The position numbers and the translations under genes were made by a program. Shown here one piece after another: positions 58,419-59,213 of a DNA stretch of 64,000 bases. How positions within the stretch are numbered: the first letter of the stretch is position 1; every line of letters begins with the position of its first letter. The stretch covers positions 48,395 through 112,394 of the forward strand of contig CACYRE010000001.1 in assembly GCA_902776735.1 (NCBI GenBank), written 5' to 3'. The notes below the pieces were generated by a model, which was not told the DNA's origin, ran no database searches, and saw only the letters and a program-made list of their open reading frames with translations. The DNA comes from an uncultured Erysipelotrichaceae bacterium (GTDB taxonomy: Bacteria; Bacillota_I; Bacilli_A; RF39; UBA660).

Positions 58419-59213
58419 TTATCCCTTTCTTTCAAAAGTTTTTCTAAAGAATATAATTATTTCTTGTATAATAGTCCTAGCAAAATTCATACAAGGTGTA
58501 GTTACAGATTCTTCTGAATGTCTTTCAGTAGTTGTTACTCCCCAAGCTTCTCTTATTCTATATTCATAAGGAAGTATAGCATAACCATTATCTCCCCAGT
58601 TTTTACCCCAAGAATTTTGAATAATAAAACCAAGTTCATTCCATCCTACTATAAGTAATGCATGACCAGCATTAGGATATTCACTAGGAATCTTAATTAT
58701 ATTATTTTTATCTAATTTTAAATCCTCGGTCTCTACTGCTATAGGAACAGCTATATTATGAACAAACATCCAAGATTTGATTTCTTTCTCATTAAATAAT
58801 CTAGCGTATGAAGTTATATGATAATCATTAGCCAAAGCTTCTAATTTATCAATATTTTTATCTACTAAATCTTTAGCTTTTATCATTTCTATATTATAAT
58901 CAAAATCATCTTTTTTAACAGCACCTTTTTTAAGAAGAGTATTTAAAGCTTCTCTAGGATACATTCCTTCTCCTTGGTAATAACCTTCTGGTCTATATCC
59001 ATAAATCCAGCCAGTAGAAAACTTCCATCCAGACTTTTCTAACATAGATGATAATGCATGAGCTACACAAGAATTTACATTTCCTTGGTCTTTAATATCA
59101 TAGTTTTCTAATCTAAATTCAGATGGTAATTCTACATTAGTTACTGAGCTAGATACTCTAAAATCTCTTAAATCGCTAGGTGATGGTAAACAACCATTAA
59201 TTTTATGTTCCAT
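58419..59213 (-). CDS. papain-family (C1) cysteine peptidase
   Basis: Catalytic Gln/Cys DQGNVNSCVAHAL, His NAGHALLIVGWN, Asn/Trp NSWGKNWGDNGY. Confidence 0.7.
   Translation of the reverse strand: MEHKINGCLPSPSDLRDFRVSSSVTNVELPSEFRLENYDIKDQGNVNSCVAHALSSMLEKSGWKFSTGWIYGYRPEGYYQGEGMYPREALNTLLKKGAVKKDDFDYNIEMIKAKDLVDKNIDKLEALANDYHITSYARLFNEKEIKSWMFVHNIAVPIAVETEDLKLDKNNIIKIPSEYPNAGHALLIVGWNELGFIIQNSWGKNWGDNGYAILPYEYRIREAWGVTTTERHSEESVTTPCMNFARTIIQEIIIFFRKTFERKG

Follow-up and report, generated by a model that had tools for sequence, protein, structure and literature searches.

A xylellain-type papain-family peptidase gene in the tail-fibre block of an uncultured Herelleviridae-like phage: a candidate accessory enzyme against the host envelope

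The window considered here, a stretch of 64,000 nucleotides (nt) of contig CACYRE010000001.1 (assembly GCA_902776735.1, positions 48,395 to 112,394), carries on its minus strand, at positions 58419 to 59213, a gene for a cysteine peptidase of the papain family. The host replicon of this gene is an uncultured Herelleviridae-like phage of approximately 125 kb, and the gene is located in a block of baseplate and tail-fibre-region genes. Judged by its sequence and its modelled structure, the product belongs to family C1 (papain family, clan CA) and there to the xylellain-type subgroup. Its family, catalytic residues, fold, operon position and accessory status could be read directly from the data, as could the architectures and genomic contexts of its relatives, in many of which the same domain is joined to wall-binding or lysin modules. 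We consider that the peptidase probably acts on the envelope of the host, either when the phage leaves the cell or when it enters.

The open reading frame (ORF) starts with ATG at 59213-59211 and ends with a stop codon at 58421-58419, while the plus-strand reading of the same interval is interrupted by many stops. The Shine-Dalgarno sequence overlaps the stop codon of the upstream gene, c13, and this overlap suggests that translation of the peptidase is coupled to that of its neighbour. The features of the gene, all on the minus strand, are the following:

58419..59213 (stop codon included), minus strand: ORF of the C1A (papain-family, xylellain-type) cysteine peptidase, 264 amino acids (aa)
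59223..59228, minus strand: Shine-Dalgarno sequence AGGAGG, 9 nt 5' of the peptidase ATG
59130..59213, minus strand: N-terminal extension, residues 1-28, with the motif GxxxSPxDLRD[FY], from the alignment with homologues and xylellain
58530..59129, minus strand: catalytic papain-fold domain, residues 29-228, from the alignment, the AlphaFold2 model and Foldseek
59087-59085, minus strand: Gln43
59069-59067, minus strand: Cys49
58664-58662, minus strand: His184
58616-58614, minus strand: Asn200
58610-58608, minus strand: Trp202
58428..58499, minus strand: C-terminal cationic amphipathic helix, residues 239-262, PCMNFARTIIQEIIIFFRKTFERK, from the model and the alignment

A sequence-only reading of this stretch had recognized a C1 peptidase from four catalytic landmarks, and all the motifs it quoted are indeed present and spaced as in papain. 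DQGNVNSC corresponds to D42-C49 and holds Gln43 and Cys49, NAGHALLIVGWN covers N181-N192 with His184, and NSWGKNWGDNGY covers N200-Y211 with Asn200 and Trp202. Papain has the same spacings (Q-6-C, H-16-N and N-2-W) between its counterparts Gln19, Cys25, His159, Asn175 and Trp177. Across 105 aligned homologues, each of the five landmarks is either invariant or found in at least 99% of the sequences. The catalytic residues being intact, the protein is predicted to be a C1A cysteine endopeptidase.

The family assignment rests on profiles and on structure alike. Pfam PF00112 (Peptidase_C1) matched at E=1.9e-13 with a score of 51.5 bits, the cutoff being 20.7; the envelope of this match is limited to residues 77-214, and the alignments to PDB and PHROG entries span residues 4-228, with PHROG 16701 ('peptidase') matching over residues 4-228 at E=7e-21. 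The best solved relative by sequence is xylellain (PDB 3OIS; E=1e-11, residues 7-219). An AlphaFold2 model computed from 61 sequences reached a mean predicted local distance difference test score (pLDDT) of 94.7 and a predicted template modelling score (pTM) of 0.91. When it was compared with the PDB by Foldseek, the top 50 matches were all C1 peptidases with xylellain first, so the modelled protein has the two-lobed papain fold of family C1. These motif, profile and structure matches are far beyond chance. No NlpC/P60 (PF00877) or CHAP (PF05257) profile matched at E<=1; a reclassification into either family is ruled out, since only PF00112 matched and the fold matches C1 only, and the first assignment to C1 thus holds. 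The protein resembles the short bacterial C1A peptidases in that its nearest relative is xylellain, a short N-terminal segment replaces the I29 prodomain (no Pfam match to Inhibitor_I29 was obtained in the peptidase) and a signal peptide is lacking.

Two short elements flank the catalytic domain. There is neither a signal peptide nor a hydrophobic leader, and the C1 domain begins at approximately residue 7. Residues G7, D14, R16 and D17, the last three of which form the DxRD segment, are retained in all the phage homologues and align with GYIPDIADIRDF of xylellain. Residues 1-28, which were modelled at pLDDT 93-96, are a putative latency (pro-like) segment because the motif is common to xylellain. 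The structure paper on xylellain, from 2013 in FEBS Letters, is said to describe an N-terminal segment that blocks the active site, together with regulation by a nucleotide.

The C-terminal helix, of about 22 residues, ends every member of the phage subfamily, the divergent copies of Bacteroidales phages included. It is specific to this subfamily, and the bacterial homologues of about 30% identity align only to residue ~220. The helices are strongly amphipathic, with a mean hydrophobic moment (muH) of 0.64, above that of any 18-residue segment of the catalytic body in 90% of the sequences, and they are cationic, with a mean net charge of +4.8. A transmembrane (TM) anchor can be dismissed for this tail, the mean of the most hydrophobic 19-residue window (Kyte-Doolittle) being 0.86 and thus below the threshold of 1.6. 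The helix occupies the position at which relatives bear their cell-wall-binding domains.

Relatives are numerous in metagenomes. A word-indexed search yielded 251 clusters at 90% identity, most of them of about 260 aa and many on contigs of 100-230 kb, and an exhaustive search, which covered 1.84 billion cluster representatives, gave 6042 matches at E<=1e-3, 966 at <=1e-10 and 93 (50%-identity clusters) at <=1e-30. The clade of the peptidase is known from metagenomes only and shares no more than 47% identity with representatives outside its own 50%-identity cluster. The deposited phage records with a match are few (23 of 50,697, from about six lineages): THSA-485A, phiCTP1 and one relative, the Lak megaphages and a few metagenomic records. 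Among prokaryotes, with one genome per species, only two prophage-like contigs from metagenome-assembled genomes of 'uncultured Bacilli' come to approximately 45% identity, and ordinary bacterial C1 genes stay at 25-30%. The first impression that such peptidases are rare in phages is therefore true of deposited phages but not of metagenomes. As a novelty it is further weakened, since the acquisition of xylellain-type C1A peptidases by Myoviridae and Siphoviridae was reported in a 2023 survey (PMC10380794) and several phage entries in BFVD are named 'Peptidase C1A'. The presence of the C1A family in phages is thus already known, and the gene in the window is one more member of it.

The evidence that bears most directly on function comes from the longer relatives. 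The best 150 representatives of the exhaustive search were taken, and among the 133 that were near full length the short form, which ends with the cationic helix, accounts for about 56 and the long form for about 49. Scanning of 63 long proteins (31-45% identity) recovered the C1 domain in 60 of them, followed by C-terminal domains such as Cu_amine_oxidN1 (10), SPOR (9), SLH (4) and a coiled coil (5). PG_binding_1, PG_binding_2 and PG_binding_3 gave 3, 2 and 2 matches, where one protein may match several of the profiles, and choline-binding repeats, Amidase_2, glucosaminidase and Peptidase_M15 were also found. Complete architectures include C1-PG_binding x2-M15, C1-Amidase_2, C1-glucosaminidase-SLH and C1-Ig-PKD-SPOR, and altogether approximately 40% of the related representatives bear a cell-wall-binding domain. 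Among the 59 long relatives with the DxR[DN] motif, 56 have it within the first 25 residues and no hydrophobic leader precedes it; hence these proteins are without a signal peptide. Judged from their domain order, the long relatives have the modular layout of the endolysins of phages of Gram-positive bacteria, with C1 at the place where CHAP usually sits. That C1 fusions occur as phage proteins is also evident from BFVD, where phage UniProt entries of the same fold are named 'Copper amine oxidase', 'N acetylmuramidase' and 'Peptidoglycan binding-like'. In a tree of the catalytic domains (98 tips) the helix-tailed and the long forms are interleaved, with at least 11 switches, and the nearest neighbour is of the other type for 21 of the 98 sequences.

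The genes of these relatives are often found next to lysis genes. The C1-Amidase_2 gene is followed, after a gap of 3 nt, by a Phage_holin_6_1 gene, the C1-glucosaminidase-SLH gene by an ORF of 66 aa with two TM segments, and the C1-PKD-SPOR gene lies after XkdX and a protein with three TM segments; the context of a protein with C1 and a coiled coil (P0181), on a 2-kb contig, was uninformative. Siphovirus prophages have, in this order, the tape measure, Dit, Tal and additional tail genes, then the peptidase, two membrane-spanning ORFs (105 aa, then 73 aa) and a GH25-LysM endolysin. THSA-485A has a GH25 endolysin followed by the C1 peptidase, and phiCTP1 has a structural protein followed by gp27 (C1 and CWB2), a holin and an endolysin. 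Another, complete peptidoglycan hydrolase goes with the C1 gene or domain in all the contexts that were examined. Other copies lie among structural genes: the peptidase is beside baseplate or fibre genes in three further genome types, and at four loci it is placed between fibre genes and the genes of the prohead protease and the capsid. A role in head maturation is ruled out for it, as relatives have a separate S77 prohead protease beside gp23-type capsid genes. One homologue is located among nucleotide-metabolism genes, and the Bacteroidales-phage copies are surrounded by small unknown genes. The recurring context is thus the border between the distal tail genes and the lysis genes, which alone cannot separate a tail enzyme from a lysis enzyme.

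The phage itself can be described from the window and from metagenomes. Proteins identical to those of the window are also encoded on metagenome contigs of approximately 124-125 kb in ENA. A megablast of the window against INPHARED revealed no near-identical deposited phage, and the DNA polymerase gave distant matches only. The GC content is approximately 25%. Above 52 kb all the gene-like ORFs are on the minus strand, and below 52 kb the same is true of every ORF of at least 100 aa but one. The lower 45 kb form the replication module, in which DNA polymerase, helicases and ligase are encoded. Along the minus strand the peptidase region contains, in order, a fibre-like gene (c10), a baseplate gene, c6, c13, the peptidase, c14, small ORFs and the genes of proteins with DUF285/BspA-type leucine-rich repeats (LRR):

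62316..63599, minus strand: c10, 427 aa, with weak tail-fibre/collar-type matches
61732..62292, minus strand: baseplate wedge protein (Pfam BW3TFN), homologue of Listeria phage A511 gp105 and of SPO1 gp16.1
59910..61742, minus strand: c6, 610 aa, next to the baseplate wedge gene on its downstream side, where A511 and SPO1 have their tail-fibre/receptor-binding protein genes
59227..59910, minus strand: c13, 227 aa (215-523 aa among relatives), directly upstream of the peptidase
57681..58415, minus strand: c14, 244 aa, directly downstream, starting 3 nt past the peptidase stop codon
56285..57037, minus strand: DUF285/BspA-type LRR protein, candidate receptor-binding protein
51002-52606, minus strand: larger DUF285/BspA-type LRR paralogue, candidate receptor-binding protein

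The phage can be called Herelleviridae-like because its BW3TFN baseplate wedge protein is homologous to A511 gp105 and SPO1 gp16.1. This protein matches solved baseplate proteins, A511 gp105 among them, and its homologues in deposited phages are almost solely from phages that infect hosts of Herelleviridae type, namely Staphylococcus, Bacillus, Listeria, Enterococcus and Brochothrix. Downstream of gp16.1, SPO1 has genes for tail fibres and an enzymatic tailspike. For c6, no match was found in Pfam, NCBIfam or PDB, nor an informative one in PHROG, and c13 likewise had no Pfam or NCBIfam match and no informative PHROG match; c13 is likely a distal tail or receptor-binding component. The protein c14, which is co-conserved with the peptidase in the closest clade, was modelled as two tandem FN3/Ig-like beta-sandwiches. 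A conserved partner or inhibitor gene for the peptidase was looked for and ruled out, as the downstream gene varies by lineage and c14 is FN3-like with no recognizable inhibitor. No terminator-like site was detected on the minus strand from 60624 to 55041, and we infer that the peptidase gene is co-transcribed with the tail/baseplate block; a promoter scan, with 88 sites where 82 were expected, was uninformative. The gene is therefore inside a tail-fibre module, as first read, as it shares the orientation of the baseplate and tail-fibre-region genes and is closely packed with them in an arrangement that is kept in eight genomes. The stricter wording, that it lies between tail fibres, is right as to position, although none of its neighbours is a proven fibre.

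Several other genes of the window deserve a brief description. The DUF285/BspA-type LRR proteins, encoded in the distal tail region, are the largest protein cluster across the related phages, and the paralogues differ in number and length among related loci, as receptor-binding proteins do. At 55059-56255 (minus strand) two adjacent proteins with multiple TM segments, of 188 and 190 aa, are kept in relatives (clusters c73 and c52), and the 190-aa protein has a soluble C-terminal part and a weak, sub-threshold AgrB-like match (E=9e-4). The interval 52740-54319 (minus strand) encodes a 132-aa protein that matches BclA_C (C1q/TNF-like) below the threshold, beside a DUF7841 protein, and a 248-aa protein of PHROG 16490 that has a hydrophobic segment at its N-terminus, a coiled coil in its central part, a CCC motif and a C-terminus rich in Tyr and Gly. 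ARAGORN made one tRNA-like call, with a four-base anticodon (gtat) and no assigned identity, at 42947-43028 (minus strand), which may be an unusual or frameshift-suppressor-like tRNA, or a false call. In the replication module, 7874-10048 (minus strand) encodes an unusual mosaic of 724 aa in which a helicase-like N-terminal part is joined to repeated D5-like/HTH/HNH-associated DNA-binding modules and in which 16 PHROG families were matched.

Whether the peptidase is obligatory could be assessed in close relatives. Ten of them were retrieved with the gp105-like protein as an anchor, and seven were readable past c13. Two of these seven sister phages (L129 and L135) carry unrelated ORFs of 502 aa and 618 aa, which matched no family, in the slot of the peptidase, and they keep the order c10, the gp105-like gene (c11), c6, c27, c46 and c13. 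In other relatives the slot is taken by extra DUF285 genes or by a pretoxin-HINT (PT-HINT) protein. Because of the two sisters with unrelated ORFs in the slot, the peptidase gene is a swappable accessory cassette and no obligatory structural part.

Some copies of the gene have peculiarities of their own. One relative (L128, IMGVR_UViG_3300045988_104240) encodes, within 15455-17202, a 371-aa protein that is beta-rich in its N-terminal part and ends in a pretoxin-HINT domain, and the start of the C1 copy overlaps it by ATGA. This C1 copy ends just past Asn-Ser-Trp and is missing the C-terminal helix; the gene may be decaying, or the truncation may stem from an assembly error. It is not an intein-containing C1, which was ruled out since the 371-aa ORF is a separate PT-HINT protein and the C1 copy is truncated. 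Inteins with a LAGLIDADG-type domain interrupt C1 at 6699-8627 of L118 (IMGVR_UViG_3300025858_000009, 304 kb) and in P0184. The insertion site is immediately before the catalytic Cys (…QQTVSS/CHDDQTEV…LLSGN/CCAHS…, the slashes marking the site), so that this Cys is also the +1 splice nucleophile. A related intein is present in another gene at 1567-2718 of L095.

The phage has a separate candidate lysis cassette, located approximately 8-9 kb downstream of the peptidase gene:

47914..50394, minus strand: candidate lysis cassette, with c3, c77 and a C39_2 + SH3_3 protein
49615-50394, minus strand: c3, 259 aa; a single TM helix at the N-terminus, a conserved domain at the C-terminus
49250-49597, minus strand: c77, 115 aa, with one N-terminal TM helix
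47914-49269, minus strand: candidate endolysin with Peptidase_C39_2 and SH3_3, 451 aa, TTG start

The C39_2 + SH3_3 protein is likely the endolysin of the phage and would then be its second clan-CA cysteine peptidase. No Pfam, NCBIfam or PDB match was found for c3, which matched one unnamed PHROG family only. In topology, c3 and c77 resemble the T4 holin T and antiholin RI, and the likeness is one of topology only, as no profile matched. A gene of the c3 family recurs beside the peptidase in ten large myoviruses (44-49% identity), where the order is baseplate, DUF285, a small TM protein, c3, the peptidase, a weak P2 gpI-like match and the portal. Each of their peptidases has the same C-terminal helix and lies directly after c3, an adjacency that deserves attention because in the window c3 stands before the endolysin gene. 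With the endolysin of the window as the query, a search for that of the 'group 2' phages retrieved only close relatives on other contigs. As in the window, C1 and C39_2 occur together at 5923-8662 of L162 (an SRR19753080 contig), where a C1-Ig-PKD-SPOR gene and a stand-alone Peptidase_C39_2 gene are two genes apart; the two enzymes may act jointly.

An action on the envelope is argued for by the relatives, whose C1 domains are fused to wall-binding or lysin modules, are without signal peptides and are encoded next to holins. The sequence-only reading, which suggested an attack on a proteinaceous host surface, gains support here, since the modules include the SLH, CWB2 and Cu_amine_oxidN1 domains of the surface-layer (S-layer) type. 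As to the stage of infection, we tentatively favour a soluble accessory helper of lysis, an interpretation that we hold with less than even confidence. It is favoured by the small size of the protein, the lack of an anchoring domain, the accessory status, and the homologues of 45% identity and the same architecture that are found in lysis cassettes. The peptidase would then be synthesized in the cytoplasm at a late stage of infection, as a product of the baseplate/tail-fibre operon, and would be kept inactive by its own 28-residue N-terminal segment. It would leave through the holin lesion along with the C39_2-SH3 endolysin, the C-terminal helix would bind to an anionic surface of the wall or membrane, and the enzyme would cut either a wall-bound protein (S-layer or other anchored protein) or those peptidoglycan peptides that the main lysin spares.

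A number of observations weigh against a lysis helper. The peptidase gene, in the tail-fibre block, is separated from the lysis cassette by the 8-9 kb mentioned above, and adjacency to a holin or another lysis gene was found in relatives but not in the window. It is instead packed between its neighbours with gaps of 13 nt upstream and 3 nt downstream, and the order c10, the gp105-like gene, c6, c13, the peptidase, c14 and DUF285 is the one kept in the eight related genomes. The part that c3 would play in lysis is itself inferred from position and topology only. In the peptidase a Pfam scan detected no cell-wall-binding domain, the cationic amphipathic helix being there instead, and the lack of such a domain is typical of virion-associated lysins, not of endolysins. 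Since homologues are also present in phages of Gram-negative Bacteroidota, a single common substrate is not obvious. No C1 peptidase is known to have a role in phage lysis or to act on peptidoglycan, and a literature search retrieved no report of family C1/PF00112 as the catalytic domain of a lysin; the catalogues of lysin catalytic domains in the literature consulted leave out family C1. Finally, according to the GenBank note on phiCTP1 gp27, the recombinant protein did not lyse Clostridium tyrobutyricum cells.

Several of these points would suit a peptidase carried on the baseplate or fibres of the virion, where it would digest the S-layer, wall-anchored proteins or wall peptides at entry and be docked, perhaps, to c13 or c14 through its C-terminal helix. 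The tight packing in the baseplate/fibre operon, with the ribosome-binding site over the upstream stop codon, the synteny in eight genomes, the location beside baseplate or fibre genes in three further genome types and the equivalent SPO1 region with its fibres and enzymatic tailspike all fit, as do a slot that is hypervariable like a receptor-binding cassette and an enzyme without a cell-wall-binding domain in a phage that has a separate endolysin. The combination of C1 and CWB2 in phiCTP1 gp27 is also that of Cwp84, which processes an S-layer. How phages pass across S-layers is in addition an open question, and the only structure of an S-layer-penetrating phage, that of phiCD508, revealed no enzymatic domains (PMC11948020). 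We still regard a virion enzyme as rather unlikely: the protein is a small single-domain enzyme in which no virion-anchoring or trimerization domain was recognized, two of the seven sisters readable past the slot are without it, the relatives with an interpretable context have it in lysis cassettes, and the latent N-terminal segment would require activation on the particle. Another candidate role is that of a morphogenetic protease that trims a tail, fibre or receptor-binding protein (e.g. c13, c14 or the DUF285 proteins) inside the cell. Tail genes surround the peptidase in four genome types, a protein without a signal peptide would be active or activatable in the cytoplasm, and in L128 the C1 gene directly follows that of a self-cleaving PT-HINT protein with overlapping start and stop codons. 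Yet the neighbours vary by lineage and leave no conserved candidate substrate, the sisters with the same fibre genes do without the peptidase, the wall-binding and lysin fusions of relatives would make no sense in an assembly protease, and, as far as is generally known, Herelleviridae have no need for one, all of which makes this role improbable.

The missing signal peptide could as well indicate an intracellular effector that cleaves host proteins for takeover or amino-acid scavenging, or that inactivates a defence protein or a tail ubiquitin-like conjugate. The C-terminal helix, amphipathic and cationic like membrane-targeting sequences, would hold such an enzyme at the inner face of the membrane, and the accessory, patchy distribution is one that counter-defence genes often have; the homologue among nucleotide-metabolism genes is outside any tail or lysis module. 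The gene is part of a late structural operon, however, and not among early genes, the wall-binding fusions point to the outside of the membrane, and C1 enzymes are not generally known as deubiquitinase-type proteases, so that we give this idea a slim chance. Less credible still is a mere passenger, a recently transferred cassette or moron with no role in the infection cycle. The accessory distribution, the hypervariable slot and the truncated copy of L128 are what one would expect of it, but strict conservation of the catalytic residues and of the motifs at both ends extends over more than 100 diverged homologues, the ribosome-binding site is strong, and in two relatives inteins have settled at the catalytic Cys, as is typical of functionally constrained sites.

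For an enzyme acting on the envelope, be it at lysis or at entry, the substrate can be narrowed to some extent. All characterized C1 enzymes cleave L-polypeptides, which favours a protein. SLH, CWB2 and Cu_amine_oxidN1 are anchors typical of S-layered Firmicutes and point in the same direction; a protein substrate is also favoured because C1 accompanies a complete peptidoglycan hydrolase and because gp27 alone is reported to be non-lytic. The S-layer is a possible substrate. On the other side, the CHAP-like position, the fusions to SPOR and PG_binding domains and the occurrence in phages of Gram-negative Bacteroidota favour peptidoglycan peptides. For the C1-domain adhesin-like proteins of Methanobrevibacter ruminantium a role in the turnover of pseudomurein has been suggested (PMC2812497). 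The original interpretation, a protein layer such as the S-layer or spore coat rather than peptidoglycan, therefore fares less well than the observation behind it, which is confirmed. The exclusion of peptidoglycan is not established, given that C1 is also fused to Amidase_2, glucosaminidase, M15, SPOR and PG_binding domains, and nothing supports the spore coat, so that the interpretation is partly supported.

In a wider perspective, papain-family C1 might be a hitherto unrecognized lysin or S-layer-opening module of phages, one that is combined interchangeably with wall-binding domains, second lysin domains or a minimal cationic amphipathic helix; we put this forward as a tentative proposal that is somewhat more likely to fail than to hold. 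If true, C1 would cut what glycosidase and amidase lysins spare of the envelope, namely its proteins or peptides (S-layer or wall-anchored proteins, or peptidoglycan peptides). It would serve either as a 'third lysis function' where Gram-positive hosts have a protein coat or as a tail-borne S-layer opener, and the gene in the window would be its stand-alone minimal form. A clade that cuts envelope proteins or wall peptides would be a new catalytic class for engineered lysins and a candidate for the missing S-layer step in the entry and exit of phages through a protein S-layer. The gain from the gene of the window alone is smaller, as its swappable tail-fibre slot is informative but not unique.

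The known system closest to the peptidase is xylellain of Xylella fastidiosa, its best match by sequence as well as by structure (Foldseek E=4e-15, TM-score 0.71). The two proteins have in common a short N-terminal I/L-R-D-F/Y segment in place of I29 and a single domain in a chain of about 260-290 aa. They differ in that xylellain, 24% identical, is encoded by a bacterial chromosomal gene and is without the C-terminal cationic amphipathic helix. Among annotated phage proteins, Tsac_2838 of the Thermoanaerobacterium phage THSA-485A is of the same family and 34% identical over residues 7-228, but its gene lies directly after the GH25 endolysin gene and not in a tail-fibre block. None of the annotated phage C1A peptidases (Tsac_2838, PHROG 16701 and the Lak homologues) has a demonstrated function. 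Clostridium phage phiCTP1 gp27 shares with the peptidase a phage-encoded C1 domain, the lack of a signal peptide and a position at the junction of tail and lysis genes, and is distinguished by its length of 665 aa, its CWB2 wall anchor and an identity of only about 27%.

The precedent for the S-layer idea is Cwp84 of Clostridioides difficile, a C1A protease that is tethered by CWB2 and matures the S-layer protein SlpA. Cwp84 is secreted and has a signal peptide, a propeptide and a lectin-like domain. This architecture is not that of the peptidase, which consists of the C1 domain only, CWB2 being present in its distant phage relative gp27, and Cwp84 is not among the best 60 of the 159 PDB sequence matches to the peptidase. 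The lysins with CHAP or NlpC-P60 domains, such as LysK, phi11 gp49 and HydH5, are Cys-His enzymes of clan CA. Like the relatives of the peptidase they combine an N-terminal enzyme with a wall-binding domain, have no signal peptide and are encoded near holins or tail modules; they are nevertheless of other families, without a profile match to the peptidase, and C1 enzymes are known as L-polypeptide endopeptidases only. Mycobacteriophage LysB, a serine esterase, and the spanins, which are membrane-fusion proteins, offer an analogy of function without homology, in that each is an add-on, encoded beside a complete peptidoglycan hydrolase, that would take away a further layer at lysis. By this analogy a C1 enzyme could have a similarly layer-specific role. 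In its action the peptidase may thus resemble a CHAP lysin or Cwp84 while being a member of neither group.

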